The notes below the pieces were generated by a model. It had not been told where the DNA came from and did no database searches. It saw nothing but the letters and a program-made list of their open reading frames with translations. This document shows positions 20,985-60,292 of a DNA stretch of 64,000 nucleotides, one piece after another (the first letter of the stretch is position 1; every line of letters begins with the position of its first letter). The stretch comes from Hemiscyllium ocellatum (lineage: Eukaryota), in assembly GCF_020745735.1 (NCBI RefSeq), contig NW_026869102.1, positions 367-64,366 of the forward strand, written 5' to 3'. The position numbers and the translations under genes were made by a program.

Positions 20985-21495
20985 GGGCCACCGAGGTAGC
21001 CAATGGGCGGCGGAGGCCTCCAAGGAAGTGGGCGGGATTGATTGATTGATTGCGCGCATGCGCACATTACCGACGCCGATACGGCAAGACCGGTGACTGG
21101 CGACGGGGGTCTATCCAATCCGAGGGGAGAGGAGGGAAGCCAATGGGAAGCGAGGTTGGGGTCGGCGGCGCCTCAGAGGCCGGACGCGCGCGGAGTGTCG
21201 AATGGCCGCTGGGACACGTGATCAGCAATGAGGCATCCGACGAATGGGAAAAGCGGGCTCGCCTCCGATTGACGGGCGGCCGCACCAACCGGAGGCAGAG
21301 TCTGGGCAGGAGTAAAGGGGCGTTCCTGAGCTGAGCGGCCAATGAGAGCGGTGTGAGGATGTGGCGGAGGACCAATAGGATGAGGCGCTCGGGCCGGGAG
21401 GAGGGCGGGGCTTTGATCAGATTTAAATCGGGCGGCGGTTGGGAGGCGGGAGGCGGCTCGTTGTGTTTAAAATAGCAGCAAACAGGTAAAAACCG
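20985..21495 (+). promoter_or_regulatory. copy A of the KIF22-type CCAAT-cluster promoter plus exon-1 module (orphan copy)
   Basis: There are at least five CCAAT/ATTGG boxes, GC boxes (gggcgg), the palindrome gcgcatgcgc, an E-box cacgtg, and two TTTAAA elements. It ends in ...gtgtttaaaatagcagcaaacag|gtaaaaacc, an exon end plus splice donor. It is near-identical to the modules at 50.09-50.6 and 59.8-60.3 kb. Confidence 0.45.
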
Positions 21496-22155
21496 GCCTT
21501 TTCCTGGTGTTATTTATTGTATCGCTTCCTCGGGCAGCTCTCTGCACCTTCTCCGCGTGAAAAAGTTGTTCCTTTGTAAATGTTTGACCTTTGACCCTCT
21601 GGTTCTTGCCCACTGACCCCCCCATGACCCTATAAACCTCTATAAGGTTATCCCTCAGCCTCCCCCCTTCAGCTCAAACCCTCCAACATCCTTGTGAACC
21701 TTTCCCCTCTCACCCTTAACCTGTGACCCTCTAGTTTTGTCCTCCCTCACCACCCCCTGAGGGATAATACCTTGACCCTTCACCTTATCCATGACCCCCA
21801 TGACCCTATTAACCTCTATAGGGTCATCCCTCAGCCTCTTCCCTTCAGCTCAGACCCTCTAACATCCTTGTGAACCTTTCCCCTTCCCACCATGAACCTG
21901 TACCTCTAGAGTCATAGAGATGTACAGCACGGAAACAGACCCTTCGGTCCAACCTGTCCGTGCTGACCCAGTTATCCCAACCCAATCCATTCCCACCTGC
22001 CAGCACCCGGCCTCTATCCCTCCAAACCCTTCCTATTCCTATACCCACCCAAACGCCCCTTAAATGTTGCAGTCGTACCAGCCTCCACCACTTCCTCTGG
22101 CAGCTCATTCCATACACGTACAACCCTCTGGGTAAAAAAGTTACCCCTTAGGTCC
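21496..22155. repeat. copy of KIF22 intron-1 proximal sequence with internal about 100 bp tandem repeats and an L2 3' tail
   Basis: It is the reverse complement of 49.49-50.09 kb. It contains the motif tacagcacggaaacagacccttcggtcc. Confidence 0.5.
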
Positions 22156-22159
22156 CTTT

Positions 22160-23660
22160 TATATCTTTTCCCCTCTCACCCTAAACCTATGCCCTCTAGT
22201 TCTGGGCTCCCTGACCTTACAGAACAGACTTTGCCTATTGACCCTATCCATGCCCCTCATTATTATGTAACCCTCTATAAGGTCACCCCTCAGCCTCTGA
22301 CGCTCCAGGGAAAACAGCCCCAGTCTGTTCAGCGTCTCCCCGTAGCTCCGATCCTCCAATCCTGGGAACATCCTTGTAAATGTAGTGAGGCATAAGTCCA
22401 GTAGTTTAAGTATGCCGTCTTTGTTGATAGGTTCCGCCTCCTGTTTTCTGCTATGTATGTCCAGTAGGTTGTCCACTACACACTTTACATTCAACAATCA
22501 GATATACGAACAAATCAACGGAACACCCATGGGATCACCAATCGCGGGACTCATAGCAGAGGCAGTTATGCAAAGGTTAGAACAAACAGCCCTACCACAA
22601 ATTCAACCCAAAGTCTGGGTCAGATATGTCGATGACACTTTCGTAATCATCAAAAACACGGAAATAGAAAAAACACACTGGATCATCAACGCCACACTCT
22701 CAGGCATCCGATTCACGAGAGAAGTAGAAAAGGATAGCCAACTCCCATTACTAGACGTGATAGTACAGAGAACACCAAACGGAGAATTCACCACAAGGGT
22801 ACACAGGAAAACAACACACACAGACCAAGTCCTAAACTATGAAAGTAACCACTCCAACACACACAAACGAAGCTGCATCAGGACACTATTCAAAAGAGCG
22901 ACAACACACTGCAGTACACCAGAACTGCGAAAAGAGGAAGAGGAACACCTATACAAGGTATTCGCCAAAAACGGATACCCGCGCAACTTTATCAACAGAT
23001 GCCTAAGAGAGAGACCACGGAACGAGGACATGCCACAACCAAAAGGACTAGCCACACTACCATACATCAGGAGCGTTTCAGAACTGACAGCCAGACTACT
23101 GCGACCCCTAGGACTCATAACGGCACACAAACCAACAGCCACGCTCAGACAACAACTTACTAGAACAAAGGAGCCAATACCCAACATGAGCAAAACTAAT
23201 GTAGTTTATAAAATACCATGCAAGGACTGCACAAAACACTATATAGGACAAACAGGAAGACAGCTAACAACCCGCATACATGAACACCAACTAGCCACGA
23301 AACGACACGACCAACTATCCCTAGTAGCCACACACTCCGACAACAAGCATAATGAATTCGACTGGGAAAACACTACTATCACAGGGCAAGCCAGACAGAG
23401 AACAGCCAGGGAATTCCTAGAGGCATGGCATTCATCCACAAATTCCATCAACAGACACATCGACCTGGACCCAATATACCAATCACTACAGCGGACAGCT
23501 GAAACTGACACCTGGAAGCGGCAAGGACAGACCACTATAAATGCCGGAAGAAACATCAAAGAAGCGCTTTGCAGGAGGCTCCACAGCACTGATGAGGTCT
23601 CCTAGCCAGGGGACGAAACGTTTGCAACAAAAACTTCCAGCTCGGCGAACAGAACCACTA
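22160..23660 (+). mobile_element. Penelope-like retroelement, 3' half (RT C-terminal part plus GIY-YIG endonuclease plus 3' tail)
   Basis: ORF 22385..23605 carries the RT motif YVDDTFVI and the GIY-YIG motif VVYKIPCKDCTKHYIGQTGRQLTTRIHEH. The GIY-YIG endonuclease is the hallmark of PLEs. Confidence 0.8.
23586..23626 (+). ncRNA. hammerhead ribozyme motif in the PLE 3' region
   Basis: CUGAUGAG at about 23589-23596 is followed by helix II GUCUCC..GGGGAC, then GAAAC at about 23615 and GUUUGC. This matches the HHR core. PLEs are known to carry HHRs. Confidence 0.45.
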
Positions 23661-24939
23661 CAGTTTGGAAGTGTTGCAGCCAAGTGATTAAAGGCCTGTT
23701 TTTGCAAACCTATTGTGTTCACTCTTCATTATCATTTGTGCTGTCACAGGGTGGGAGTAGGAGAAAGGTTTGGACAAGGTGGTGAGGGGAGACCCACCCT
23801 CTGAGATAACTGATGGGGAGCAACTAGGCCCTGGGGAAGTCAAACCACATTGACAGCAGGACTGACAGCCTGTGCTGCTGCTCAGCTAGTGTAGCTCCAA
23901 CACTGGCAGTGACCCAGTGGGGTGGTCAGCTATGTCCTTATATACAAAAAGCAGGACCGTTACTGCCCCTTCACTCTCCTCTTAACCATCCCCAATGTTA
24001 GCAATGCCAGGGCCACTCAGCTCAGTTGTGTTTCTGTGGATGACTCCACACTATGTTCCCATCAGTGTGCAGCAAAGATTGGCAGAGCTGTGGACAAGTT
24101 TCACTGGCCATTTAATGGTACAACAAGTTTTAATAAAGGATTTGCTAAAGACAAGAAACAAATGGTTAAAATACAATAGCAGTGACATGTGAGCTGAGGT
24201 GGAAATATACATTCTCAGCTCCATTCCATTCTGACAAGATTCATACTTTAATAACAAAGGAGAAGCCAGCTCTGAAACACTGATTGCTAATGGCCAGGAG
24301 GAAGGTTTAGACAGCAAACTAACAACAGGGGCCCTGACAGGCTCCCCCTCTCAGTCTGATGATTCCGTATGACCCCGTACAAAGCAGACACAGCACAGGC
24401 AGAGGGAAGAACAAGGACTGGAGATCGGAGTCGAGTGTTGGTAAAGTGGATGAACTGTTCAACCTCCAGGTATTCACCTCCCCATACAGCTCATCACATT
24501 GGCCTAGGGAATGGGCAATATAAGAATAGTTATTCAGTAAAAAGGTTTGGTTTTGATCATCACTGTCTGTTCAGTCGGGTGTGGGTCACCTCAATAGGAA
24601 CAGTATAGTAGGAGGCTATTCAGCCCTTTGAGCCTGATCTACCATTCAATATGAACATGTCTGACCATCCATCTCTGTCCCTGCTGTCTCACAACATTCC
24701 CCACCCCCCCTCCCCCCTCAGCACCAAGAGCTCCATCGGAATACTATCCCCTCGTTCACACATTCCATAGTGTAGCCTCAGCAGCTTCCTGGGACAGGAT
24801 TCCACAGGCTCCACCACTTTCTGGGGAAAGAGGCTTCTCCCCATTTCAGATCGGTAACACAATGACCTCTGGTTTCAGATTCCTGATCGGGAAGGTCCTG
24901 TGTTTATCCTGTCGGGTCCTGTTGGAGGTTTATAGGATC

Positions 24940-25320
24940 ATACAACATTTCCCGTACACCCCCAATAAATGCCAGCAAATGTCATCCTGAACCAATCTAA
25001 TCTCTTCTCAAATGTCAGTCCCACTATATCAGGAATCAGTCCAGGAAACGTTTGCTGCACTCCCTCCATAGTTATCCTCAGATAATGAGACCAAAACCCA
25101 GACACTATATTCCAGGTGCAGTCAGTATCATTATCTGTGCTCCTGGATTTGAAGACTCCTCTCCCTTTGGAGGCCTGCAAGCTTACTCTCAGGTGAGTGA
25201 TGTACAGACCCAGGTCCCGTGCCCCCCCAATCCCCCTTCCCAATTTATTGCTGTCCAGGTAATTCTCACATTTATCCACATCATACTGCATCTGCCATGC
25301 ATTGGTCTGCTCACTCAATG
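24940..25320 (-). mobile_element. degenerate L2 RT fragment
   Basis: Minus ORF 24938..25318 contains W.MQYDVDKCE, compare the L2 motif WQMEFNxDKCEV. Confidence 0.35.
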
Positions 25321-25624
25321 TGTCGAAACCACACTGTCAGAAGTCACACAATATCAAGCCACAGTCCAACAGGTTCATTTGGAATCTCAAGCTGAAGACA
25401 GTCCACCTGATGATGGGGCACCGCTCCCAAAGCTTGTGATTTCAAATAAACGGGTTGGATTTACAACCGGGTGTCACGTGATGTCTGATTCGGTCCATCC
25501 CAGTCCCACACCAGCACTGGCCAATCCACATCAAATCACACTGCATCTGTTCCCAGTCAGTGTTTATACAAAGCAAGGGTCACAAAGTCAGCATCAGGCC
25601 CTGCACACACTCTCCGATTCTTAC

Positions 25625-25681
25625 CCTCATGAAAGTGGACAGAGTTCTCAATGACATCCCAATCTTCTCCAGCTCCTCGAT
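25625..25681 (-). CDS. KIF22: KIF22 coding exon 13 (penultimate). The terminal exon is not located in this window or was not recognised
   Basis: Acceptor tgttctttcag, then IEELEKIGMSLRTLSTFMR, then donor gtaaga. Human: [20 protein letters not shown]. Confidence 0.6.
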
Positions 25682-27244
25682 CTGAAAGAACACAGCATCA
25701 ACTCGGGTTAAAGTGCTCAGTGTTGAGCAGAAACGGTACGTTTTACCTGGCACTTGTCCCACTCAGTCATTAGCTGGCTGATTCCCACCTCTCTTTTCCC
25801 TATTCCTGGGCTTCTCTCATTATTAGGAAATGGGATCTGGAGGTCACTGGCTGGGCCCAGCATTTCTTGCCTGTTCCAATGTGCTCCTTCAGAAAGTGGT
25901 GGGGAGCTGCCTTCTTGAACCACTACAATTGTGCCCCATGGATTGCCCCACAATGTCCTTGGGGAGACAGTGCCAGGAGTTTGACCCAGTGACACTGAAG
26001 AAATGGTGGCAGGAAGGTGAGAGGGTCAGAGGGGAACTTGCACAGGGTGGGGTTCCTGTGTGTCTGCCACCCTTGTCCTTCTGGACGGATGTGGTTGGGG
26101 GTTTGGAAGGTGTGGCCTAAGGAGTCTCATTGATAACGAATTCAGTAGCTGCAGAGTGTAGAGTCCAGTTACATGGAGCATTATAGAAAGGGGGAAAGTG
26201 GGAGAGGGCTCGGCAGAGGGGGACGTTTGTATTAACAAGTAATAGGTCAGAGTATGGAAAAGGATCAAGAGTCAAACTTCAGGTACAGCAGATATGGGGA
26301 CAACTCGGAGAAGGACAGTGGTCAGAGGGCTGAGGGTGTTCTACTTAAACACACAGTATACCAAACATATGGATATGTGTGGGAGTTAGAGGGAAAGTGA
26401 GGCTGGTGAAGAAGTAAAGGGAACAAAGAAATGGTGGGGATTTGGGACTTCCAGAAAGCCTTGGACAAGGTGCCACCCAAGCAGCTGCTACATAAGATAG
26501 GAGCCCATGGTGTTAGGGGATAGAGGATTGGCTGACTGGCAGAAGGCAAAACCTGGAGACACACGGGGCTATTTCAGGATGGCAGCTGGTGCTGACTGGA
26601 GCTCTACAGAGAGCCCATGTTGGGACCAAACCTATTGATGTTCTACGTTAACATCTGACAGAGGAACAAACAGCATTGTAGCTGGGGGGGGGGGGGGGGG
26701 GGGGGGGAACAACAGGACATGGATGTGCTGAGTCCACCTGGACAAAGATGTGTGGGTGAAATGCGTAGTTTGGTAGGAAGAGGTGTGGACTGTTTTCTAA
26801 CTGGGGAAAGGGAGTCCTACTTCAGGATTCTCTTCAGGTTGATAGTTAGGAAGGGAAATCCAATGTTCACCTTCATTACAAGGCAGCTCGAATACAACAA
26901 CAAGATACACTGCTGAGTATGTTGAACGCTCTGGTCAGACTGCATTTGGAATACTGTGAGCTGTATCGGAGGATGGCGGTGCTGGTAATGGAGGGGTCCA
27001 GAGGAGGTTTATAAGAATGAACAATCCCAGGGATGAAGAGCTTGTCACAGGAGGAGCAGTTGGGGACTCAGTGGATCATATAGAAGGATGGGGCAGAATA
27101 CTGGGAGATGGACAGAGTGGATGTGGAGAAGGTTCCTCAACCAGGAAGGACAAGGGCATGGTCTCAGTAAAGAGAAGGCAGGAGAATGAGATTGAGAAAC
27201 ATCAACCCATGACCAAATGCTGGAGTGGACTCAATGGGTAAGAG

Positions 27245-28920
27245 TGCCTAACCATGCTGTGGGTCATGTAGCAGGGCCAATCCCCCCAACCCCGAACACG
27301 GTGTGTCATGTAGTGGGACCAATCCCCCCCCAACCCCAAACACGGTGGGTCATGTAGTGGGGCCAATTCCCCCCAACCCCAAACACGGTGGGTCATGTAG
27401 TGGGACCAATTCCCCCCAACCCCGAACACAGTGGGTCATGTAGTGGGGCCAATTCCCCCCAACCCCAAACACGGTGGGTCATGTAGCAGGGCCAATTCCC
27501 CCCAACCCCAAACACGGTGGGTCATGTAGTGGGACCAATTCCCCCCAACCCCGAACACGGTGGGTCATGTAGCAGGGCCAATTCCCCCCAACCCCGAACA
27601 CGGTGGGTCATGTAGTGGGGCCAATTCCCCCCAACCCCAAACACAGTGGGTCATGTAGTGGGGCCAATTCCCCCCAACCCCAAACACGGTGGGTCATGTA
27701 GCAGGGCCAATCCCCCCAACCCCAAACACGGTGGGTCATGTAGTGGGGCCAATTCCCCCCAACCCCGAACACGGTGGGTCATGTAGTGGGGCCAATTCCC
27801 CCCAACCCCAAACACGGTGGGTCATGTAGCAGGGCCAATTCCCCCCAATCCCAAACACAGTGGGTCATGTAGTGGGGCCAATTCCCCCCAACCCCAAACA
27901 CAGTGGGTCATGTAGTGGGGCCAATTCCCCCCAACCCCAAACACGGTGGGTCATGTAGCAGGGCCAATTCCCCCCAATCCCAAACACAGTGGGTCATGTA
28001 GTGGGGCCAATTCCCCCCAATCCCAAACACAGTGGGTCATGTAGTGGGGCCAATTCCCCCCAACCCCGAACACAGTGGGTCATGTAGCCGGGCCAATTCC
28101 CCCCAACCCCGAACACGGTGGGTCATGTAGTGGGGCCAATTCCCCCCAACCCCGAACACAGTGGGTCATGTAGCAGGGCCAATTCCCCCCAATCCCAAAC
28201 ACAGTGGGTCATGTAGTGGGGCCAATTCCCCCCAATCCCAAACACAGTGGGTCATGTAGTGGGGCCAATTCCCCCCAACCCCGAACACAGTGGGTCATGT
28301 AGTGGGGCCAATTCCCCCCAACCCCGAACACAGTGGGTCATGTAGCCGGGCCAATTCCCCCCAACCCCGAACACGGTGGGTCATGTAGTGGGGCCAATTC
28401 CCCCCAACCCCGAACACAGTGGGTCATGTAGCAGGGCCAATTCCCCCCAATCCCAAACACAGTGGGTCATGTAGTGGGGCCAATTCCCCCCAATCCCAAA
28501 CACAGTGGGTCATGTAGTGGGGCCAATTCCCCCCAACCCCGAACACAGTGGGTCATGTAGTGGGGCCAATTCCCCCCAACCCCGAACACAGTGGGTCATG
28601 TAGCAGGGCCAATTCCCCCCAACCCCAAACACGGTGGGTCATGTAGCAGGGCCAATTCCCCCCAATCCCAAACACAGTGGGTCATGTAGTGGGGCCAATT
28701 CCCCCCAACCCCGAACACAGTGGGTCATGTAGTGGGGCCAATTCCCCCCAACCCCAAACACAGTGGGTCATGTAGTGGGGCCAATTCCCCCCAACCCCGA
28801 ACACGGTGGGTCATGTAGCGGGGCCAATTCCCCCCCAACCCCAAACACGGTGGGTCATGTAGTGGGGCCAATTCCCCCCAACCCCGAACACGGTGGGTCA
28901 TGTAGTGGGACCAATTCCCC
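27245..28920. repeat. 46-47 bp satellite (about 36 copies) inside the KIF22 intron between exons 12 and 13
   Basis: The unit is cacggtgggtcatgtagtggggccaattccccccaaccccaaa, with A/G and tag/cag variants. At 28920 it ends directly against a reverse-oriented SINE head. Confidence 0.9.
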
Positions 28921-28985
28921 TGGAATTGAACCTGGATCCCTCGTGCTGGGAGGTCGCAGTGCTAACCCCTGAGCCAGTGTACCAC
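28921..28985 (-). mobile_element. SINE tRNA-like head fragment
   Basis: ggaattgaacctggatccctcgtgctgggaggtcgcagtgctaacccctgagccagtgtaccacc is the reverse complement of a tRNA-derived SINE head. Confidence 0.5.
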
Positions 28986-29245
28986 CCTGTTTGACTGTTT
29001 CAGTTGCCCTTGGTTGATTCTCTCAGTCTAACCCGTGGATAGTGATCAGAAGCAGAGACTCTGGATTTACGTCCCTCCCTGCACTTCCCCCCCCCCCCGC
29101 CCCCCCCCCCCGCCCCCCCCTCACACAGGCTGACTGTAGAACAATGACTAGCTCTGGGGGAGTTTATGACCCACCCCTCCAACCCTAGGGAGCTGGCTGT
29201 GGGGATTCCCTTCCTGAATAGGAGGGGCTGTGGGAGATGAGATAC

Positions 29246-29437
29246 CTGACTGAAAGGTCCATTGTGTTCCCTCCAGCTCATGATGAGCCTGGCAGTCTTG
29301 TCCCCCACCCTTTGCAGGGTCTTCAGCTGCTTCAGGTCTCCGGTGTTGAGGATGTTCAGGATGTAATCCTTGCGTCTCTGAGTCAGTTCATGATCCACGG
29401 TCAGCTCAAACTCATTCTCCAAGTCACTGCTGCATTC
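29246..29437 (-). CDS. KIF22: KIF22 coding exon 12 (helix-hairpin-helix DNA-binding region)
   Basis: Acceptor ttttttttcag, then ECSSDLENEFELTVDHELTQRRKDYILNILNTGDLKQLKTLQRVGDKTARLIMSWREHNGPFSQ, then donor gtatct. Human: [58 protein letters not shown]. Confidence 0.85.
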
Positions 29438-30981
29438 CTGAAAAAAAAGAACGACCAGCTCACATGTTACCAGAATGTCCATCGCCACTTTCTCCCCCTG
29501 TCCCCCCTACACTGGGGGTGGGTGGGATGACAGGACTAAAACTGGGACAATGATTAAATGTGGCCAACAGACTGTCCCTGAGAGGAAGGAGTTGCATGAA
29601 CAATCTGACAGGGTACGTATGAGCTCCCCTTCCTGACAGTGGATTCAGAGCAGCCCTGATCACATGCTTTTCATTAAACAGGCACCAGGAGAGGGGCTTG
29701 TCTGCTTTCTAGCATGCTGGGGTTTTGATGCTGTCCGCAGTATCATTACTGCAGTCATAAAGAGGTTAAGGGTGATCTCGTTCACTAACATCAATGTGGT
29801 TTATGGCTGTTCTACTTGTCCTTTCACTTGCTTGCAGACTCTGAGCAGGACCCAGTTTGAGAGAGCAGTCCCCAATGTCCAGTGGTACACCACAGGGGTC
29901 AGTGCTTGGGACTCTTACTGTTTGTGATAACGGAGCAACAATGGAGAAGATGGTTAGTTTGTGGAGGACAGGAAGATGGGCTGATAACGAGAAGGAAGGT
30001 ATTCGGGGGATAGAAGTGGTCAGGTGGAATGGAACCGTGTAGAAATGGGAGATGATGCCCTTTGGAAGAAAGGACAAGACCAGAGAGTACTCTGAATGGC
30101 AGGACACGAGGAAGCTCAGAGGAACCTGAGGAACTTGGGGTGCTTGTCCAAAGGCCCCTGAAGGCAGTAAGACAGGTTCATATGGGGCAGGGGGGTGAAT
30201 TTAATCAGTGGGGGCATAGACTGTCCAAGCAGGGAGTTCACGGTGGAGCTCTATTCACCAATGTAAGCTCGCTGGTTGGTGTAGGGTAGGTATAGACACC
30301 CACTCTGGTAGATGTGACAATAAATACATCCACCAACTGTAATGAGCACTGCAGCAGGCTCGATGGCTTGTACAGCTTCCTTCTGTTCCCAAGTTCCTCA
30401 TTCCAATTGTTGTACAGAGATGGCCAAGGGGAGATTGGATTGAATTGAAAGGCCTGGATAGTGGGGATGAGAAGGGCTGTGTGTTAATGGTGAGGTTACA
30501 GAGACTGTTTTACCAACATTTGTGGGCAGGCTGTGGGCATCGTAGAGGAGGCTGGCATTTATTGCCAATCCCCAATTGCTGTGGCAGGTTGTGCCTGAAA
30601 GGGTTGTATAAGAAGATGGATTCTCAGCACATTTAAAAAAGGTGGTAGGATATGTCCCACAGCTGCCATACCCTGTGTGACTACAGGTCAAAAGCTGGAG
30701 AATGGCAGTAGGCAGATGTGGGTGTACCATAACCTGCTCCCCCATTGGGATCAGACAGTAAGGGGTTACCTTACAGAATCAGTAATACACAGGACAGATT
30801 CCAGCAGGGCTGACAGCTCACACTCATCTCTACAAGGGGGACCATGAATGGGAATTCCAGCTGGTTCACACAGGGAGAACCAGTCATGCTGGGTCTGTAC
30901 CCAGCTGGAGTTTCTGTGGAGGGGACAACCCCCACTCTCTTCCTGTAGCCTCCGGTCCATACTCTGGGTGGGAACACACAC

Positions 30982-31055
30982 CTTGTTATCCAGTTTCTCT
31001 TTCCTCTTCAGCACCAGCGTGTCGCCGGTTTTGAGTAACTGACCATTATCCAGAC
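30982..31055 (-). CDS. KIF22: KIF22 coding exon 11
   Basis: Acceptor ctgttgttccag, then (R)LDNGQLLKTGDTLVLKRKEKLDNK, then donor gtgtgt. Human: ..AEIHILKNKGRKRKLESL. An alternative upstream acceptor at about 31084 (tttcccagcccccag) would also be in frame if exon 10 is 1 nt longer. Confidence 0.55.
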
Positions 31056-31305
31056 CTGGAACAACAGGGAGAACACAGTCAGACCTGGGGGCTGGGAAAG
31101 AGAGAGAGATACAGTGGGAGAGATTGACATGGTCAGATCTGGCCAGGGGCCAGGGTTAGGGGCTGAGCTATGACCCAGCTACCCTGCTATCCCCCTCTCG
31201 CTCTCTCCCCCCCACTCCCCCCCTAACCTGTGACACCATGACTAAAGTCTGTATGTGTCCACACTCCCAGGTAACATGTCCCCACCAACAGAACACCTCA
31301 CTTAC

Positions 31306-31474
31306 GCTGTAGCGGTGTCACTATCGCCTGCTGTCTCGGCTTGGCCACTGAGCCTCTGCACAGAGCTCCAGGATGAATCCTGTTCAACAAGGTCTCCTTC
31401 CTCGGGGTTTGTCCCACTGCCGTTCCTTGCAAAGCGAGCACTTGCTCCAGCTGCTTCTGTCTCTGCTCCAGTTT
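31306..31474 (-). CDS. KIF22: KIF22 coding exon 10 (coiled-coil)
   Basis: Acceptor ttgaaatag, then KLEQRQKQLEQVLALQGTAVGQTPRKETLLNRIHPGALCRGSVAKPRQQAIVTPLQ, then donor gtaagtgagg. Human: RLKTKQKELEAKMLAQ...KKAVVMPLQ. The exact length (169 vs 170 nt) is uncertain from my manual counting. Confidence 0.65.
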
Positions 31475-31733
31475 CTATTTCAACACAAGGAAAGCAGGCA
31501 TGGACATTTCACAGACAGACCCTCTCCTGCACACACTGGCATTTCACCTCCGTCTGTAATATAATAGCGCTCTGAACATTTAACAACACTAACCCTGTCC
31601 TGTCCCTTATCCTCCAGGGGCCCTGTACTGAAACCAGGCTCCATCGTGAGACACATTTACCCCATGACCCTGGGCTGTTTATCCCCTACCCTCCTGGGTC
31701 TGGGTGCACCGAGCTGAATGTAAGGGGCCTTAC

Positions 31734-31917
31734 CTCTATCTGAAGCCTACTCTCCTCCACTTTTTTTAGGAGTTGGAGACGTTCCTCTTTGGGTGTTCCC
31801 AGTACTGGAAGACCATTCTTGCAGTGTTTCCGCAGCATCTTTTCCAGATTGGAAATTCGTTCCAACACGTCCGAGTCAAAGGCCTCTGGGTCATATTCTC
31901 CCGGCTTCAGGAAGGGG
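31734..31917 (-). CDS. KIF22: KIF22 coding exon 9
   Basis: Acceptor ctgatccag, then (S)PFLKPGEYDPEAFDSDVLERISNLEKMLRKHCKNGLPVLGTPKEERLQLLKKVEESRLQIE, then donor gtaagg. Human: ...MDPAMLERLLSLDRLL...[22 protein letters not shown]. Confidence 0.75.
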
Positions 31918-32904
31918 CTGGATCAGAACGTGGAACCAGTGAGACAGTGCCTTCACATCCCTCCCCTGTACTCTAACTCCCGTGCCCACCTTCCCCAATC
32001 TATCTGAAGATTTCACTCCCCAACAGTTGATGTGCTCTTCCAGTCCACCCTCATTATCTCCTGCTTTATTCTCTGTCCCACTGCATGCTGTGGGACTACT
32101 CCTGTCCAGATCTTCTCCCCCTTTATATTGCTTCCCCACACCCCCATGGATTCTGCATCGTCTGAATTAAGGCCATTTCTTGCCTTGGTATTGACGTTAT
32201 GCCATGCCAACAAAACCACCTACCACCCTTCCTGCTTGCCCTTTGGGATAAGTCACATGCCCTGAAAAATGGGAGATCCCAGCTTTGATCTGCTCATAAC
32301 CCCTAACTGCTCAGTCTCTCTGCAGGACCTCCTTTCCATTCCGAGCAGTCCATGTTGATCCTAACAACTGACTCCCCCATCTCTCACTCAGCTCTGCTCC
32401 AGCCTGGAGACTTCTTATTTTCCAATGTGTACACAGACCATCAGCATCACTTGCCAGATCAGCATTAATCCCCTAGTAGCCATTTGTGCAGAGTCACATG
32501 TAGGCCAGACTGGGTAAGGAAGGCAGATGGCCTTCTCTACAGGAGATCAGTGAACCAAATGGGCTTCTATCACACTCTATGGTTACATAGAGACAGTGTC
32601 ATACAGCAGGGAAACAGACCCTGTGGTTCAGCCAGTCCATGTCGAACATTAACCCCAAACTAAACTAGTCCCACCTGCCTGCTCCTGGCCCATATCCCAA
32701 ACTTTTCCGATTCACATACTTATCCAAGTGTCTTTTACACGTTGTAACTGTACCCAACCCACCATTTCCTCAAGTTCATTCCACAAGCAAACCACCCTCT
32801 ATGTCAAATAGTTGCCCCTCATATCATCTATAAATCTCTCACCTTAAAAAGGTGCCCCTAGTTTTGAAATCCTCCATCTTAGGGAAGAGACAACTACCAT
32901 TAAC

Positions 32905-33140
32905 TCGATCAATCCCTCCTCATTGTCTTATAAACCTCTATCAGGTCACCTCTCACCCTCCCACACGGGGGTGAAAATGAAACAGTCCCATCCTCTATGT
33001 AAAACTCAAACCCTTCCACACCCAGCATCGTCCTGGTAAATCTCTTCAGAAAGCTCACCACCTTTCTATAGGGAGGCACCGTTAGACTAGCCTTGATGAT
33101 GTCATTAACCATTGCACCAGACACACACACACACACCCCC
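32905..33140 (-). mobile_element. L2 3' end (RT C-terminus) inside a KIF22 intron
   Basis: Minus ORF 32909..33136 reads ...GRVRGDLIEVYKTMRRD. Confidence 0.6.
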
Positions 33141-33463: not shown

Positions 33464-33607
33464 CTGAACGAGGAACGAATGAAAGAATATTTAAAAAGGC
33501 AGAAGCTGTGTGTCACTGCCACACTACGGGCAGCCGCTCCCCTGGACACCACTGTCACTTCACAGGGAATGTAGGGTTCCCTCCCCCACGGTTGTAACCA
33601 CACTTAC

Positions 33608-39470: not shown

Positions 39471-39701
<231 letters not shown>

Positions 39702-49480: not shown

Positions 49481-49489
49481 AAGTGGTGG

Positions 49490-50088
49490 AGGCTGGTACA
49501 ACTGCAACATTTAAGGGGCGTTTGGGTGGGTATAGGAATAGGAAGGGTTTGGAGGGATAGAGGCCGGGTGCTGGCAGGTGGGAATGGATTGGGTTGGGAT
49601 AACTGGGTCAGCACGGACAGGTTGGACCGAAGGGTCTGTTTCCGTGCTGTACATCTCTATGACTCTAGAGGTACAGGTTCATGGTGGGAAGGGGAAAGGT
49701 TCACAAGGATGTTAGAGGGTCTGAGCTGAAGGGAAGAGGCTGAGGGATGACCCTATAGAGGTTAATAGGGTCATGGGGGTCATGGATAAGGTGAAGGGTC
49801 AAGGTATTATCCCTCAGGGGGTGGTGAGGGAGGACAAAACTAGAGGGTCACAGGTTAAGGGTGAGAGGGGAAAGGTTCACAAGGATGTTGGAGGGTTTGA
49901 GCTGAAGGGGGGAGGCTGAGGGATAACCTTATAGAGGTTTATAGGGTCATGGGGGGGTCAGTGGGCAAGAACCAGAGGGTCAAAGGTCAAACATTTACAA
50001 AGGAACAACTTTTTCACGCGGAGAAGGTGCAGAGAGCTGGCCGAGGAAGCGATACAATAAATAACACCAGGAAAAGGCCGGTTTTTAC
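49490..50088. repeat. KIF22 intron-1 proximal repeat (about 100 bp internal tandem units plus an L2 tail). It is also present at 21.5-22.15 and 59.1-59.69 kb
   Basis: Near-identical blocks (ggggcgtttgggtgggtataggaataggaagggtttggagggatagaggccgggtgctggcaggtggg...) occur in all three places, always adjacent to the promoter/exon-1 module. Confidence 0.6.
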
Positions 50089-50130
50089 CTGTTTGCTGCT
50101 ATTTTAAACACAACGAGCCTCCTCCCGCCT
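50089..50130 (-). other. KIF22: putative non-coding KIF22 exon 1 (5' UTR). The 5' boundary (TSS) is not determined
   Basis: The minus strand reads ...gtgtttaaaatagcagcaaacag|gtaaaaacc (donor). It lies 4.6 kb upstream of the first coding exon. That exon begins with a strong acceptor, ctttttctctctttctccatccag|TGCAGTTGACAATG. Confidence 0.35.
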
Positions 50131-50870
50131 CCCAACCGCCGCCCGATTTAAATCTGATCAAAGCCCCGCCCCCCCGGCCTGAGCGCCTCATCCTATTGGT
50201 CCTCCGCCACATCCTCACACCGCTCTCATTGGCCGCTCAGCTCAGGAACGCCCCTTTACTCCTGCCCAGACCCTGCCTCCGGTTGGTGCGGGCGCCCGTC
50301 AATCGTAGGCGAGCCCGCTTTTCCCATTCGTCGGATGCCTCATCGCTGATCACGTGTCCCAGCGGCCATTGGACACTCCGCGCGTGTCCGGCCTCTGAAG
50401 CCCCGCCGCCTCCAACTTTGCTGTTGCTTCTCGTCTCATCCTAACGCCCGCCCTCCTGGCCCCATCCTCACTTTCCATTGGCTACCCTTCTCCCCCATCG
50501 GATTGGATGGACTCGTTGCCAGTCATTGGTCTTGCCGTATCAACGTCGGTAATGCCTCGCGCGAAACCAATCAATCCCGCCCACTTCCCGGAGTCCTCCG
50601 CCAACCATTGGCTCCTTCTGTAGCTCCCCAGCGTTATGTGATTCCTATTGGTCCAGACACCTATCAGTCATCTCCAAACTGCCGCCTGCTGCCGCCGCCC
50701 TCTATCAATCAATCCTATGAAGATGACCCTCCCCGCACAGGCCCTCACTCTTTATTGGCTGTTCACGGTGTCAATCGGCCGGCCCCTGCGCGCCATTGGG
50801 CCGTCGCCGCAGCCCATCAGTGTAGGGGGCGTGGTGGGACCCTCCTGTCTCCCGCCCACATTGAGCCTCC
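50131..50870 (-). promoter_or_regulatory. KIF22: KIF22 promoter, a CCAAT-box cluster (at least 10 boxes) with GC boxes and TTTAAA (CHR-like) elements (copy B)
   Basis: It is the reverse complement of copy A, extended distally with further CCAAT boxes (gaccaatagg, gcccaatggcg, cagccaataaag, gattgattgatag). The CpG content is retained. Dense NF-Y plus CHR architecture is typical of G2/M genes such as kinesins. Confidence 0.45.
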
Positions 50871-51049
50871 AGTTGAAGGTGTGGTGGGTGTTGTGGAACT
50901 AACTGTCGAACAGTTGGGATGGTATGAGATGTCTGAAGAAGCTATACCACGTGTCACATTGGCAGTGCATGCTGAATATCAAGCCAAGGATCTGGAACCC
51001 ATGTCCAAATGCTTGATGCCGCTAACTGATTGGGTTTAGACTTAGTTAC

Positions 51050-54540: not shown

Positions 54541-54633
54541 TGTCACATCTGGCTCAACCACTTACACAGATGCAGGAAGTGTTCCTCGCGGTGTACCTGA
54601 TGAATATAAGTTGGCAGACCAGCACAATTGAAA

Positions 54634-54834
54634 ATGTCTAACCTACCTCCTGCGGATGTGCAGCCCTTTAGAAGATGGCCGCTTCCCATCACCGCTGGGT
54701 GAAGGTGGTGGTCCGGCTCCGACCCTACCAGTCCACAGAGGGCGAGCAGCAGGAGGGCCCCTGTATGCGTGGCCTGGACACCCGCTCGCTGGAGCTTGTG
54801 AACTGGAGGAGCCGGACAGAATCCATGCAGTACA
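54634..54834 (+). pseudogene. KIF22: inverted pseudo-copy of the KIF22 first coding exon
   Basis: Near-identical to the reverse complement of 45294-45496. It has a 1 bp deletion (ttaggaag to ttagaag), which frameshifts the reading frame, and a mutated donor (gtgagt to gtgact). The flanking intron sequence is also duplicated (54543-54960 matches 45170-45510). Confidence 0.8.
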
Positions 54835-54959
54835 AGTGACTGTCCTACAGGTGCCCCAACACTGACAGACCCATGCCCACCATCCCACCACCTCCTGGCT
54901 GGGACTGATGTGGCTATAGGGTCAGAACAGAGCACAATTGCAGAGATCACAGTTAACAC

Positions 54960-57125
54960 TCAGCAGTGATAATACCCCTTCTCACCATCCTGAGATGGCC
55001 AAAGGATACAGTGGGATAGAGATAAATTCAAAGTTTGGGAGTAGATTTGTAGCTCGGGTACTCGTTGTGGTTCTGTTCGCTGAGCTGGGAGTTTGTGTTG
55101 AAAACTACTGACACCCAGAAGCGGCAGAGACAAGCCACTATAAATGCCGGAGGAAACATCACAGAAGCGCTTCATAGGAGGCTCCCAAGCACTAAGGATG
55201 TCACCTAGAAAGGGGACGAAACATTTGCAACACAAACTCCCAGCTCAGCTAACAGAACCACAACGAGCACCCGAGCTACAAATCTTCTCCCAAACTTTGA
55301 ACACCTACGGGCGAGAGACGCCAAGACAAGCCAGGAAATGGGAATCCTATGCCAACCACCTAAGCCCCACACACGAACAACTCCAGTTCCTGCATCAACG
55401 CTGAAGGATGAGAATCCTTCCACCATGTGTCAGATACAGACCACCAGTCAACAATTCACAAGCCAGGGACACAGCCAGACAGAACGGACTCAGGATGATC
55501 CAGGTAATGATTCCAGACGCTCACAGACTTCACAAATACAGACAAGAAATTGCACACCAAAAATCATTAATTTCAAAAACCACCAATCAGGAATGGACCC
55601 AGACCGTAGAACAGGCCGTAGTACCAAACAGGACTACACACCACATAAAAACAGTGCTAAAAGAAAAGTGGCCAAACTAACAACGAAGACACCACAACAC
55701 ACACCTGGGTTAAAAACCTCTCCCACAGACACGGAAAGAACAATACTGGCCAAGGGACTCAACTACAACCACAGGAACACCAAGACAGCAGACTTCCTAG
55801 CAGCACTAGAATGCACACTCGGGAACAATGGATTGACAGAAGAGACACCAAACAGCGAGACAAAGTATCGTACCTCTGATAACAAGGAAAAGACACTCTC
55901 AACACCAAGGAGAGAGAAGTACTAAAATCACTAAGAAATGATAGGAACGTAATCGTGCTGCCAGCAGACAAAGGCAGAATGACAGTCATACTGGACAAAG
56001 CAGAGTACATCCAAAAGGCACAACTACTTGCAGATACCAACATCTACCCAAAGAGAGAGTCTGACCCCACCCCACAGCTCACCAATAGGATAAACACACT
56101 GAGGAATCTACAAAAAAACGGACAGATAACCAGGTCTGACCTACAAAGAATGAAACCGGAAAGGAACACCACCCCCAGATTCTATGGACTACCTAAAGTA
56201 CACAAACCAGACATCCCACTCAGACCCATAGTATCACTACCAGGGACACCATCACACAAACTGGCTAAAGAGCTACAGCAGAAACTGAAACACCTGATCA
56301 GCAGATCCAAACAATCTATACAATCAACAGGAATTCTTGGACATCAGAAATATACACAGACAAGGAAGAAACCATGGTCTCATTCGATGTAATGGCACTG
56401 TTCACCTCTATCGACAAAACCCTAGCCAGAGAAACAATATCCAACCTGCAGGACATACAGAACAGACAACAGGACGTTGAACCTATTAACAAAGACGGCA
56501 TACTTAAACTACTGGACCTGTGCCTCACAACACACTTCACATTCAACAACCAGATATACGAACAAATCAACAGAACACCCATGGGCTCACCGATCTCTGG
56601 ACTCACAGCAGAAGCAGTAATGCAAAGGTTAGAACAAACAGTCTTACTGCAAATACAACCCAAACTCTGGGTCAGATATGTGGGTGACACCTTTGTAATC
56701 ATTAAAAACAGAAATAGAGAACACACACCGGATCATCAACGCCACCCTCACAGGAATCTGATTCACGAGAGAGGAAGAAAAGGACAAACAGCTCCCATTC
56801 CTAGACGTGATGGTACAGAGAACACCGAATGGAGAATTCACTACAAAGGTATACAGGAAAGCCACACACACAGACTAAGTCCTGAACTATGAAAGCAACC
56901 ACCCCAACCCACACAAACAAAATTGCATCAGGACACTATTCAAAAGGGCCACAACATGCTGCAGCACACCAGAACTACAAAAAGAGGAACACAAGGTATT
57001 CACCAAAAACAGATACTCGCACAATTTCATCAACAGATGCCTAAGGGAGAGACAACGGAACGAGGACATGCCGCAACCCAAGTTGAAAGGGTTCTAAAAA
57101 GATTTGAAAGATATAAAGGGACCTA
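54960..57125 (+). mobile_element. degenerate Penelope-like element (3' tail of one copy at 54960-55300, then an RT region with frameshifts)
   Basis: ORFs 55955..56892 encode ..HFTFNNQIYEQINRTPMGSPISGLTAEAVMQRLEQTVLLQIQPKLWVRYVGDTFVIIKN.., the PLE RT (compare 22.4-22.7 kb). At 55.17-55.22 there is a mutated hammerhead-like core (CUAAGGAUG). Confidence 0.6.
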
Positions 57126-57129
57126 AGGG

Positions 57130-57360
57130 GCAACTGTTTCACCCAGAGGGTGATGCATGTATGGAATGAGCTGCCAGAGGAAGTGGAGGAGGCTGGTACG
57201 ATTGGAACATTTAAAAGGCATCTGGATGGGTATATGAATAGGAAGGGTTTGAGGCAAATGGGACAAGATTAGGTTAGTCTATTTGGTCAGGATGGACTGA
57301 AGGGTCTGTTTCCGTGCTGTACATCTCTGACTCTAAGTAGGGATATTACTAGTAATCAAA
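57130..57360 (+). mobile_element. L2 3' tail
   Basis: ..ggaagtggaggaggctggtacgattggaacatttaaaaggcatctggatgggtatatgaataggaagggtttgag...gtctgtttccgtgctgtacatctctgactc. It is the reverse complement of 43500-43700, so it belongs to the inverted duplication. Confidence 0.6.
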
Positions 57361-57374
57361 ACCCTGAGGGGCTC

Positions 57375-57537
57375 TTGTTATAATGTGATGGTGCCTTGGG
57401 TGTGTGGGGGGGGGGGGGAAAAACACGTCACAGCTGGAATTCAGTATGTGAATTCAGTGAAACCGATCCTATCCCATGTCCTGAATGGACAGAATGCCAG
57501 TGTCTTTGCCTATGGCCCTACGGGAGCAGGTGGGTGA
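57375..57537 (+). pseudogene. KIF22: inverted pseudo-copy of KIF22 coding exon 2 (diverged 5' part with a G-rich insertion, intact 3' part plus donor)
   Basis: ..tatgtgaattcagtgaaaccgatcctatcccatgtcctgaatggacagaatgccagtgtctttgcctatggccctacgggagcag|gtgggtgagtg matches exon 2 at 42546-42640. The flanking intron (57545-57945) matches 42130-42545 in reverse complement. Confidence 0.75.
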
Positions 57538-57952
57538 GTGACTGTCCACTGTCCTGCCTCTTTCCTTAGTGACCAGCCCCCTCAGAGCCTACAGCCTTAA
57601 AACCTGTCCTTTAACATTTAGACTAAAATGTCATGTTGCATTGTCAAACACACTTGCTGCACACCAGAAAATAGACAGGCAGGGAGGTTAAGGTCATGAA
57701 GGACATCAGTGAATCTGTGTCAACAGAACACAGTGATAACATTCACAGCTGTTCCTTTGTGAAATTAATAACTGTTTGATTCTGGCCTTGAAACAAAACT
57801 ATCAATTAACTTCTCTCCCCAATTATTGTCCTTCACTGTTGTCTGTCTAGTTAAGAATGCGCAGGGTTTTTGTAAACCTTCTTGTATAAAGGAAGACAGT
57901 TTGGGACCGTTCAGCACAGTACCCCGTCAGGGTTGTAGAAGAGCTGATCTCC

Positions 57953-58151
57953 CCACTAGAGACCACGCACCAAGACTTGGTGATTCGAGGGGACCAAGAC
58001 AAGAACATCTCCGTCCCCGACCTGACACAGCAGCACATCACCAGCTTCGTGGAGTTTGAGCAGTTCTTTCTGCCAGCCACACAGACAGACCACAGCCTGC
58101 ACCAAGTTGAATTGTCGGTCCAGTCGCAGCCACTCTGTGCTCCTGATTAAG
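57953..58151 (+). pseudogene. KIF22: inverted pseudo-copy of KIF22 coding exon 4 (switch I). Exon 3 is deleted
   Basis: It matches 41080-41282 in reverse complement, with a 2 bp deletion (acaaagacggacc to acagacagacc) that frameshifts it. A deletion spanning original 41290-42120 removes the GKTHTM exon. Homology ends about 10 bp after the exon donor. Confidence 0.75.
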
Positions 58152-58779
58152 GTCCAGCTAAGACGGGGCAGCCCATTGCTGTCGGGTCCTGTATTCTGGT
58201 TAGCCCGTTCCCCGGGGTTTCCACCCACGGGTGAATCCATTAACAGCGCCGTTGCCAGGCTTCCTCTCAAACCTGCGCCCGTAGACCCTCGGCTCACCGC
58301 AGGGCTGGAAGTGACCGCTGTTCCTCACCCTGCCATCTCCCGCCTGCAGCCTCCCGGGTGTTGCCTGGTGGTAGTATCCACCCTCAGGGCCTGGGAGCCT
58401 CCCCAGGGGCCGGGAGGAGCTGCCTTCACTTCCCAGAGCCCGGCCCGCGGGCCGATAGTATCCACTGTCCCCTCCGCCTCCACCACCGCCGTCTTAACGC
58501 CGGACAGTAGTTTGTACCAACGCCATTGGCTGAGCCCAGGCTCCTGTGTTCATCCACCTCACGATTGACCGAGTTCTCCATGTCCCTCTTCAGCACCGTA
58601 TCTGTTACACAGCCCCAGACCTACAGGCAGGGAGACAGACAGACAGACAACACCTGGGCATTGACACCAGAGAGACAGGCCACTGAAGGCAGCTACCATC
58701 ATACTTCCCTCCATCAGTCAGAGCATCAATTCTCGGAGGTGGGACATCCTGCTGGTCGGGTATAACAGGCAGGGGTGTG

Positions 58780-59050
58780 GGCTGGGGGGGGGAACGAGGG
58801 GAAGAGCACGGGGGGAGGGGAGTGGGAGGGAAGAGAGAACAGTGCTGGGGCGGGAGGGAAAGAGGGGAGACAGCAGAGGAGTGGAGGGGGGAAAGGGGGG
58901 AGGGTAGGGGAGTGGAGGGGGGAGAAAGGAGGGAGGGGACAGTGCAGGTGGGAGTGAAGGGACAGTGGGGTGCAAACGATTGGGGAGGGGGGGTTTAAGG
59001 GAAAGAGAGGACCGTGGGGGTGGGGGGCGGAAGGGAAGAGAGTTTGTGAG
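58780..59050. repeat. purine (GA/GGA)-rich low-complexity tract
   Basis: Read directly from the sequence. ORFs 58718-59119 are artefacts. Confidence 0.8.
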
Positions 59051-59689
59051 ATGTGGTACACTCACTTCCCCCTCCCTCCCTTCTGGAGGGAGTGGTGGAG
59101 GCTGGGACGACTGCAACATTTAAGGGGCGTTTGGGTGGGTATAGGAATAGGAAGGGTTTGGAGGGATAGAGGCCGGGTGCTGGCAGGTGGGAATGGATTG
59201 GGTTGGGATAACTGGGTCAGCACGGACAGGTTGGACCGAAGGGTCTGTTTCCGTGCTGTACATCTCTATGACTCTAGAGGTACAGGTTCATGGTGGGAAG
59301 GGGAAAGGTTCACAAGGATGTTAGAGGGTCTGAGCTGAAGGGAAGAGGCTGAGGGATGACCCTATAGAGGTTAATAGGGTCATGGATAAGGTGAAGGGTC
59401 AAGGTATTATCCCTCAGGGGGTGGTGAGGGAGGACAAAACTAGAGGGTCACAGGTTAAGGGTGAGAGGGGAAAGGTTCACAAGGATGTTGGAGGGTTTGA
59501 GCTGAAGGGGGGAGGCTGAGGGATAACCTTATAGAGGTTTATAGGGTCATGGGGGGGTCAGTGGGTAAGAACCAGAGGGTCAAAGGTCAAACATTTACAA
59601 AGGAACAACTTTTTCACGCGGAGAAGGTGCAAAGAGCTGCCCGAGGAAGCGATACAATAAATAACACCAGGAAAAGGCATAGTTTCCGG

Positions 59690-60292
59690 CCGGTTTTTAA
59701 CCTGTTTGCTGCTATTTTAAACACAACGAGCCTCCTCCCGCCTCCCAACCGCCGCCCGATTTAAATCTGATCAAAGCCCCGCCCTCCTCCCGGCCCGAGC
59801 GCCAGCGCCTCGCCTTCCATTGGCTACCCTCCGGGAGGTGGGCGGGGGTGATTGGTTGCGCGCGCGGGGCATTACCGACGTTGATACGGCAAGAGCAGTG
59901 ACTGGCAACGGGTTTATCCAATCCGATGGGGGAGAAGGGGTAGCCAATGGGAAGCGAGGTTAGGGCCGGGAGTGCGGGTGTTGGGGGGGGGTGAGAGTTG
60001 GAGGCGGCGGGGCCTCAGAGGCCGGACACGCGCGGAGTGCCCAATGGCCGCTGGGCCACGTGATCCGCGGTGAGGCATCCGATTGACGGGCGGCCGGACC
60101 AACCAGAGGCAGGTACTGGGTAAAGGGGCGTTCCTGAGCTGAGCGGCCAATGAGAGCGGTGTGGGGATGCGGCGGAGGACCAATAGGACGAGGCGCTCGC
60201 GCTCGGGGGGGGCGGGGCTTTGGTCAGATTTAAATCGGGCGGCGGTTGGGAGGCGGGAGGAGGCTCGTTGTGTTTAAAATGGCAGCAAACAG
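59690..60292. promoter_or_regulatory. copy C of the promoter plus exon-1 module, arranged as a head-to-head palindrome
   Basis: 59690-59805 carries exon 1 plus the proximal promoter in minus orientation (..cctgtttgctgctattttaaacacaacgagcc..gatttaaatctgatcaaagccccgcc). 59810-60292 carries the full CCAAT-cluster promoter plus exon 1 in plus orientation, ending ..gtgtttaaaatggcagcaaacag|gtaaaaacc at about 60292. Confidence 0.5.

Follow-up and report, generated by a model that had tools for sequence, protein, structure and literature searches.

What is a group of CCAAT-rich CpG islands doing around the KIF22 gene of the epaulette shark, Hemiscyllium ocellatum, and which of them belongs to a working promoter? 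We addressed this question in a window of 64,000 nucleotides, the whole stretch of DNA analyzed here, which lies on an unplaced, satellite-rich contig of 430,011 bp. The answer that we regard as likely is that a KIF22 promoter and first exon conserved among elasmobranchs were copied, along with more of the 5' end of the gene, by local inverted duplications. The copy upstream of KIF22 (module B) would drive this gene (gene 1), one half of a back-to-back pair (C-right) would probably serve a second KIF22 gene (gene 2), and the two other copies (module A and C-left) would be remnants. The observations that carry this answer are the sequence identity and structure of the copies, the conservation of motifs and splice sites, and an annotated splice into module B.

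KIF22 and the copies of its probable promoter module

The gene in the window is KIF22, which encodes a mitotic kinesin. A model built by tblastn with KIF22 fragments, with splice sites placed by hand, consists of 14 coding exons on the minus strand that encode 636 amino acids, with GT-AG boundaries at all introns, and it matches H. ocellatum KIF22 isoform X2 (XP_060679272.1) with 100% identity and full coverage. The complete 636-residue model was needed for this identification, as a protein search with a 237-residue patchwork query returned only matches of up to 413 residues and no shark orthologue. The same 90% protein cluster contains isoform X1 (XP_060679271.1) and the product of gene 2 (XP_060679273.1), which is annotated on the same contig, carries the flag LOW QUALITY PROTEIN and is ~98.6% identical to gene 1, with differences at 9 of 636 residues. 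Related sharks share the gene 2 residue at three of these sites and the gene 1 residue at two, and the remaining four are unpolarized. A first-pass annotation, made from the letters of the window alone, had placed the start codon at about 45507. An acceptor does lie just upstream, with its AG at 45509-45508, but what opens at 45507 is the ATG exon, and the codon itself occupies 45496-45494.

Position, annotation and comparative genomics all point to module B, with high probability, as the actual promoter of KIF22. On the sense strand, 4.6 kb separate it from the ATG exon downstream, and it is the only CpG island between that exon and the next KIF22-derived sequence; the placement and orientation originally proposed for it hold with the exact gene model.

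Direct reading, self-BLAST and alignment show that the CCAAT-rich CpG-island module occurs four times in the window (see the table). The first-pass annotation had recognized the recurrence and counted three copies, the third of which, C, is in fact two. Modules A (21149-22100) and B (50422-49474) are 98.0% identical over 952 bp, and just 81.5% identical in the distal part (A 20994-21161, B 50616-50460), where the upstream portion of A is ~230 bp shorter than that of B. Module A faces the 3' end of gene 1, whose stop codon is ~3 kb away. C-left has the orientation of B and is 95.6% identical to it (59803-59086 against 50187-49477), keeping ~100 bp from the end of the promoter along with 617 bp of intron-1 repeat, and C-right (59829-60329) matches B at 85-91% in inverted orientation. 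The repeat at the start of intron 1, which is derived from a transposable element (TE), was thought to follow every copy; it follows A, B and C-left, and C-right keeps 37 bp of intron 1 before other repeats begin. Within the window no KIF22 exon stands behind the intron 1 remnant of A. A and C had both been described as orphans, a description that does not suit C-right, which probably heads the gene 2 copy.

All copies are CpG islands, with CpG observed/expected ratios of 0.8-1.1 against 0.2-0.4 in the surrounding sequence. A motif count proposed as a check of the module was run against 2000 dinucleotide shuffles per copy. CCAAT/ATTGG boxes number 6 in 557 bp of A (shuffle mean, 1.44; reached in 9/2000), 11 in 793 bp of B (mean, 2.22; 0/2000) and 7 in 603 bp of C (mean, 1.48; 3/2000), and the clusters that had been reported are real by this measure. 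The boxes lie predominantly on one strand (6/6 in A, 10/11 in B and 5/6 in C-right). CCAAT density alone is not diagnostic, because the cluster that is densest in the window (as many as 17 boxes in 500 bp) belongs to a 43-bp satellite at 27259-28920 (38.7 copies, 93% matches, GGGGCCAATTCCCC in each unit) in a KIF22 intron toward the 3' end of the gene, between exons 29437-29246 and 25681-25625.

The copies also agree in how their motifs are arranged. Two CCAAT boxes 33 bp apart stand at -147/-114 in A, at -145/-112 in B (50232-50228 and 50199-50195) and at -146/-113 in C-right, and a similar pair is found at -153/-122 in Stegostoma. Each copy has several GGGCGG boxes, as claimed, and two TTTAAA hexamers, of which only the first occupies the conserved position of a CHR (homology region of cell cycle genes). 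This first hexamer precedes the exon-1 donor by 64-65 nt in A, B and C-right, and the coordinates give C-left an equal spacing. The exon end and donor, agcagcaaacag/gtaaaaacc (the slash marks the exon boundary), are exact in A (21485) and B (50089), differ by one mismatch in C-right (ggcagcaaacag/gtaaaaacc; 60292), and are not kept in C-left, where a one-base insertion has left the poorer donor cag/gttaaa (59702). GCGCATGCGC, attributed to every copy, is confined to A (21054).

Table. Features of the window discussed in the text (positions counted from the first letter of the window) and core sequences compared among elasmobranchs
Feature	Coordinates	Strand	Remarks
Module A, solo promoter and exon 1	20929..21485	+	Exon 1 ends 21485; CHR 21422-21427; CCAAT 21339, 21372
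Intron 1 remnant behind A	21486..22381	+	Against B intron: 99.7% over 21486-22100, 91% over 22125-22381
KIF22 gene 1	24474..45507	-	ATG exon 45507-45294; ATG at 45496; stop 24474
KIF22 intron 1	45508..50088	-	5' start: TE-derived ~176-bp tandem repeat; 3' end: polypyrimidine tract and AG 45509-45508
Module B, probable CpG-island promoter and non-coding exon 1 of gene 1	50089..50880	-	Exon 1 ends 50089; donor GT 50088-50087
CHR of B	50147..50152	-	TTTAAA, then tcgggcggCGGTTGgg; position kept across elasmobranchs
X1 alternative first exon, start codon and donor	50470..50478	-	ATGGAAA/GT; A and C-right have GC for GT
Partial KIF22 pseudogene	54619..58167	+	Between B and C; found by self-BLAST and tblastn
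C-left, truncated promoter, exon 1 and intron start	59086..59835	-	Module 59835-59702; CHR 59760-59765; exon 1 ends 59702
C inverted repeat	59695..60299		Arms 59695-59787 and 60207-60299, gapless 93 nt, 96% complementary; spacer 419 nt
C-right, near-full promoter with internal deletions	59836..60329	+	CHR 60229-60234; CCAAT 60147, 60180; exon 1 ends 60292
Colinear inverted copy of intron 1	61677..63997	+	61677-63141 against 49191-47704, 91%; 63447-63997 against 47700-47151, 98%
Core, Hemiscyllium			cagaTTTAAAtcgggcggCGGTTGgg...aaacag/gtaaaa
Core, Stegostoma			gagaTTTGAAtcgggcggCGGTTGgg...aaacag/gtaaac
Core, Scyliorhinus			cagaTTCGAAtacggtggCGGTTGgg...tcacg/gtaaat
Core, Heterodontus			taaaTTTGAAtctg...ggCGGTTGgt...cggcg/gtaatt
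Core, Hemitrygon			cagaTTCAAAcgtcccatCGGTTGtg...gatag/gtaata

The predicted core promoter and first exon across elasmobranchs

Orthologous KIF22 loci were compared from the sharks Chiloscyllium plagiosum, Stegostoma tigrinum, Scyliorhinus canicula and Heterodontus francisci and from the stingray Hemitrygon akajei. The Chiloscyllium locus has an assembly gap (an N run at ~5865-6635) at the expected promoter site and shows intron 1 synteny only; because of this gap, the promoter comparison rests on the four other species. Each of these four has one CpG island with CCAAT boxes upstream of KIF22. The aligned CHR reads TTTGAA in Stegostoma and Heterodontus, TTCGAA in Scyliorhinus, TTCAAA in Hemitrygon and TTTAAA in Hemiscyllium, with CGGTTG downstream in all of them. 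The composite of TTYRAA, 2-30 nt and CGGTTG occurs exactly once in each orthologous locus (46-72 kb), always 1.4-8.6 kb ahead of the ATG on the KIF22 sense strand; the H. ocellatum window has it four times. In five species a GTAA donor follows the CHR at a distance of 47-75 nt, and the ATG is preceded, at 0-11 nt, by a polypyrimidine-AG acceptor. Going upstream from the CHR, four sharks have the proximal CCAAT box at 34-64 nt and the next one at up to 83 nt, and the spacing of the proximal pair is 33 bp in Hemiscyllium and 31 bp in Stegostoma. BLASTN of B against Scyliorhinus gave no match, and the homology is visible only by motif search and local alignment.

Because the GTAA donor after the core and the acceptor near the ATG recur in five species, elasmobranch KIF22 is predicted to have a conserved structure in which splicing joins a short non-coding exon 1 to the ATG exon. 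The splice from exon 1 to the acceptor at 45508/45507 that the first-pass annotation proposed agrees with this structure, and the same acceptor is joined in the NCBI annotation of isoform X1, there to a donor at 50472. The second TTTAAA of each copy (TTTAAAATAG) was tried as a TATA box and rejected: it lies 20 nt before the donor, and the implied transcription start site (TSS), ~30 nt downstream, would fall inside the intron. This hexamer is not conserved: Stegostoma has ATTAAA in its place, and the remaining species lack it.

The features of a CHR promoter are found together here: a CHR hexamer near the TSS (nearness being judged from the short distance to the donor), phylogenetic conservation of that hexamer, and NF-Y CCAAT boxes upstream, ~33 bp apart, of which such promoters typically have two or three. 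The canonical CHR is TTTGAA, validated variants are TTTAAA (CCNB1) and TTCGAA (BUB1), and TTCAAA is the functional inverse (PMC4176359; PMC4705690). DREAM binds best to TTTGAA and TTTAAA in vitro and also binds TTCGAA (PMC4176359). CHRs are located on or very near the TSS, ~45% of them in reverse orientation (PMC4176359; PMC4705690). Human KIF22 is one of the late cell-cycle genes tabulated as having a conserved CHR (PMC4176359, Table 1) and one of 210 DREAM-bound, p53-repressed CHR genes (PMC4705690, Table 1). LIN54/MuvB and NF-Y binding and a G2/M maximum of expression are reported for the human gene (PMC4176359; PMC4705690). The combination of NF-Y sites and CHR initially suggested for the shark gene is thus backed by its conservation in elasmobranchs and by the human orthologue.

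We propose that the elasmobranch KIF22 core would act as a CpG island, free of a TATA box, in which several CCAAT boxes for NF-Y are followed, ~50 bp past the proximal one, by a CHR, the site that LIN54 of the MuvB core would bind in the DREAM, MMB and FOXM1-MuvB complexes. If the shark gene behaves like its mammalian counterpart and like other genes of the late cell cycle, NF-Y would provide basal activation. Analogy, sequence and orthology suggest that, through the CHR, DREAM would repress the gene in G0/G1 and MMB/FOXM1-MuvB would activate it in G2/M. The transcript would begin with the non-coding exon 1 after the CHR and be spliced to the acceptor just upstream of the ATG.

Two further motifs occur in these islands. 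CGGTTG, located at 21436-21441, 50138-50133, 59751-59746 and 60243-60248 in the window, lies 8-27 nt past the CHR and is invariant in five species; its other strand, CAACCG, resembles the MYB site YAACNG, and it could be part of an initiator or a B-MYB site. DECA-type TGAYTGACRG sites are found among the distal CCAAT boxes of the KIF22 islands, five in Heterodontus (5290-5490 of the fetched locus), three in Scyliorhinus (7950-8390) and one in Stegostoma (5720), as well as one at the edge of copy A (20929 in the window). Modules B and C-right of Hemiscyllium have only degenerate GATTGAC/T forms in their place.

Module B holds another candidate first exon as well. Isoform X1 begins MEM/QLT (MEMQLTMSNL), with QLT read from the opening bases of the ATG exon; its upstream exon must therefore end in ...ATGGAAA followed by GT. 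ATGGAAAGT is found once in the window, at 50478-50470 on the minus strand, inside B and overlapping a CCAAT box; from this single match it follows that the annotation pipeline joined 50472 to the acceptor at 45507. The donor AAA/GTGAGG is unique to B, and A (21143-21151) and C-right (59947-59955) read AAGCGAGG. A first exon specific to B, complete with an ATG, seems to have arisen here through a single C-to-T change in the CCAAT-box region. Isoform X2 has the coding exons of X1 and starts at the exon-2 ATG, so it must have a 5' exon other than that of X1, for which the exon ending at 50089 would be the obvious candidate. The alternative donor at 50472 was absent from the first-pass annotation, as was a partial KIF22 pseudogene at 54619-58167.

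It could be argued that the distal first exon is the working one, with transcription starting in the distal CCAAT cluster and the exon that ends at 50089 reduced to an intronic relic in H. ocellatum. The only annotated splice that can be reconstructed, from 50472 to 45507, would follow directly from such an arrangement, as would the presence of GT at this donor in B alone. However, X2 needs a different 5' exon, the unit of CHR, CGGTTG and GTAA donor is conserved in five species and intact in B, and the paralogous copies do not have an X1-type donor. For these reasons we consider the distal exon unlikely to have taken over; it is possible that it was added to the conserved exon rather than replacing it.

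The gene downstream of KIF22 in Stegostoma and Heterodontus has a NUFIP2 Pfam domain, and no exon of it was found in the 24 kb downstream of H. ocellatum KIF22. The upstream neighbor in Chiloscyllium is a PITH-domain gene in divergent orientation; we saw no such gene in the Hemiscyllium window, and none is called in the upstream 10 kb in Stegostoma. In tblastx searches of the window with the downstream flanks of Stegostoma and Heterodontus and the upstream flanks of Chiloscyllium and Stegostoma, only repeats matched and the ancestral neighbors were not visible.

History of the duplicated copies

Alignment indicates that the copies are duplicated pieces of the KIF22 5' end and not independent elements. 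As in segmental duplications, colinear copies of at least 1 kb with at least 90% identity, extending into sequence other than repeats, are present: B and intron 1 are matched on the C-right side over ~4 kb at 91-98%. There, behind C-right and a TE array, a copy of intron 1 continues to the edge of the window in the order and orientation of an inverted promoter, exon 1 and intron 1. This segment (61677..63997) would be the 5' part of a second KIF22 gene, with an exon-2 copy expected ~1.65 kb past the right end of the window. Because colinear intron 1 follows C-right and the contig carries a second KIF22 gene, C-right most likely drives gene 2 (XP_060679273.1), beyond that end.

The pseudogene, another KIF22-derived piece, is decayed. 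Its copy of the ATG exon (54619-55027) is 94.9% identical over 410 bp and has a 1-bp deletion and an altered donor. The second coding exon (42673-42546) is copied in part at ~57415-57531, the third is missing, and the fourth (41289-41080) is copied at 57955-58167, with loss of frame in tblastn. The pseudogene is not gene 2, because its substitutions differ from those of XP_060679273.1. Orientation alternates along the window, with A plus, gene 1 and B minus, the pseudogene plus, C-left minus and C-right plus, the pattern expected of repeated fold-back duplication. A large perfect palindrome centered at ~50065, the midpoint of the two ATG-exon copies, was considered and rejected: between 45.5-50 kb and 50-54.6 kb, the exon copy is the sole inverted match in self-BLAST.

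Copy C had been described as a head-to-head palindrome that could form a hairpin. It proves to be one full and one truncated copy (with ~100 bp upstream of the exon), whose promoters are directed away from each other. Because 419 nt separate the 93-nt arms of its inverted repeat, the hairpin or cruciform idea is weak, and C does not have the long arms and small spacer of a palindrome or cruciform. Its strong folding as single-stranded DNA (z = -16.6) reflects the arms and not a spacer-free palindrome.

Alignment of the copies had been suggested as a way to date the duplications. The copies were aligned, but no single date can be given, because the divergence between A and B is mosaic: the Kimura two-parameter distance is 0.003 for the intron and rises to 0.04 for the proximal and 0.17 for the distal promoter. 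Gene conversion among the copies is likely. Modules A, B and C-right share 29 CpGs and each has lost two or three, so that loss is small and equal. Over 414 aligned columns B has 10 private substitutions, A has 22 and C-right has 21, and the low number in B fits its being the most constrained copy, to judge from substitutions. The CpGs retained in A and C-left fit either continued hypomethylation or recent conversion.

We speculate further that A and C-left could be maintained as hypomethylated CHR/NF-Y promoters that fire in G2/M and modulate KIF22 dosage, in a locus that is still amplifying by fold-back. If so, transcription from A would run antisense and converge on the 3' end of KIF22, that from C-left would run antisense into the pseudogene, and either these transcripts or titration of MuvB and NF-Y by the two copies would modulate dosage. 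We consider this quite unlikely.

Inverted copies on a contig of just 430 kb may raise the suspicion of an assembly artefact, in which A, C, the pseudogene and gene 2 would be false duplications produced by uncollapsed haplotypes or fold-back chimeric reads. Chimeric long reads typically yield inverted junctions, the first ~18 kb of the window are mostly minisatellite arrays, gene 2 is flagged as low quality, and the intron segments of A and B are 99.7% identical. False duplicates would nevertheless be near 100% identical throughout, whereas these copies differ by 2-17% with many indels and individual truncation points, the pseudogene is frameshifted and has lost an exon, and the proteins of gene 1 and gene 2 differ at nine sites, which is far above allelic variation given typical shark heterozygosity. 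An artefact is on these grounds very unlikely. Transposition is another process that could place several copies inside 40 kb, if the promoter were borne by a TE (a long terminal repeat, a Helitron-captured fragment or other) and had come to lie near KIF22 by chance. Sequence of long interspersed nuclear elements (LINEs), Penelope-like elements and endogenous retroviruses is abundant in the region, and the same TE-derived repeat stands behind every copy, if only for 37 bp at C-right. Yet in each of four other elasmobranchs the core is single and stands upstream of KIF22 with orthologous placement and orientation, the copies lie inside longer colinear duplications of KIF22 intron 1 and exons, their end points differ with no common termini, and Rfam gave no match in the window. 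We regard a mobile promoter as extremely improbable.

The likely reading thus remains that of a conserved KIF22 promoter and first exon copied by local inverted duplications, and several points weigh against it. In the ray Hemitrygon the CCAAT boxes, three in number, are in reverse orientation and 171-237 nt upstream of the CHR. In the shark module no cell cycle-dependent element (CDE) is evident 4 nt upstream of the CHR. The one reconstructable annotated splice uses the donor at 50472 and not that at 50089, and the CHR-proximal exon might be used less than the distal one in H. ocellatum. Protein binding, cell-cycle regulation, the TSS and the use of the 50089 donor are deduced from sequence, and the link between C-right and gene 2 is extrapolated past the edge of the window. 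With an unplaced, satellite-rich scaffold and a low-quality gene 2, assembly error may affect some of the structure.

Repeats of several kinds surround the copies. A retrovirus-like element at 51184-54618 on the plus strand, with reverse transcriptase-type open reading frames (ORFs) (YVDDILL motif) and an ORF that looks env-like by eye, ends exactly where the ATG-exon copy of the pseudogene starts, and the homology of the pseudogene to KIF22 begins within ~3 nt of the exon-2 acceptor position. A reverse transcriptase ORF at 55338-56892, between the pseudogene exons, looks Penelope-like by eye (motif LPKVHKPDIPLRPIVS), and another at 35135-37208, in a KIF22 intron, looks LINE-type. The intron-1 copy behind C-right is interrupted at 60338-62225 by tandem fragments of a ~570-bp repeat, 94-96% identical between units and related to 43923-45021 and 48120-49191. 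Positions 1-17744 hold a run of C-rich minisatellites with an extreme GC skew (-0.88), among them a 29-bp unit repeated 228 times at 1-6366 and further arrays at 7076-7536, 11714-12083, 12493-12850, 13024-13753, 14456-16056 and 16700-17744. The Rfam search revealed no RNA gene.

Significance and relation to known systems

The promoter type described here is already well known and the gene was annotated, and the amplification is a lineage-specific structural curiosity; the current view of cell-cycle transcription is left unchanged. The comparison nevertheless provides a definition of the shark KIF22 core promoter, consisting of CCAAT boxes, a CHR, CGGTTG and a short non-coding exon. An NF-Y and CHR design common to sharks, a ray and mammals would imply that it has been conserved since early jawed vertebrates. 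The inverted amplification of the KIF22 5' end is documented in a developmental model species, in which annotators will have to heed a pair of KIF22 genes together with a partial pseudogene and two promoters that stand alone. These solo copies amount to a natural experiment on how a cell-cycle promoter behaves in isolation.

Among known systems, CHR-type late cell-cycle promoters resemble the shark module in being TATA-less CpG islands with two CCAAT boxes 33 bp apart and a conserved CHR ~50 bp downstream. The shark hexamer, TTTAAA, is that of CCNB1, and the mammalian KIF22 orthologue is bound by DREAM (PMC4176359; PMC4705690). Unlike those promoters, the shark module has no recognizable CDE and up to 11 CCAAT boxes, it is accompanied in other sharks by TALE-type TGAYTGACRG sites, and it is known from its sequence alone. 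The shark first exon is also non-coding and is spliced 1.4-8.6 kb downstream, whereas human KIF22 has its ATG in the first exon.

The occurrence of TGAYTGACRG among the CCAAT boxes of KIF22 islands recalls the TALE (Pbx/Prep) DECA sites that stand next to NF-Y at vertebrate promoters, a pairing described in zebrafish (PMC6023610). The likeness is one of motif presence, and Hemiscyllium B and C-right differ in keeping only the degenerate forms.

The third comparison is with fold-back segmental duplications and palindromic amplicons. In contrast to these, the KIF22 arms are short and broken by TE insertions, and a 419-nt spacer separates the two halves of C. Breakage-fusion-bridge cycles or template switching may be the mechanism of the KIF22 amplification. 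The resemblance lies in copies of 0.7 to >4 kb that are 91-99.7% identical and alternate in orientation, in the back-to-back junction in C, in the decayed pseudogene, and in a mosaic divergence that suggests gene conversion.

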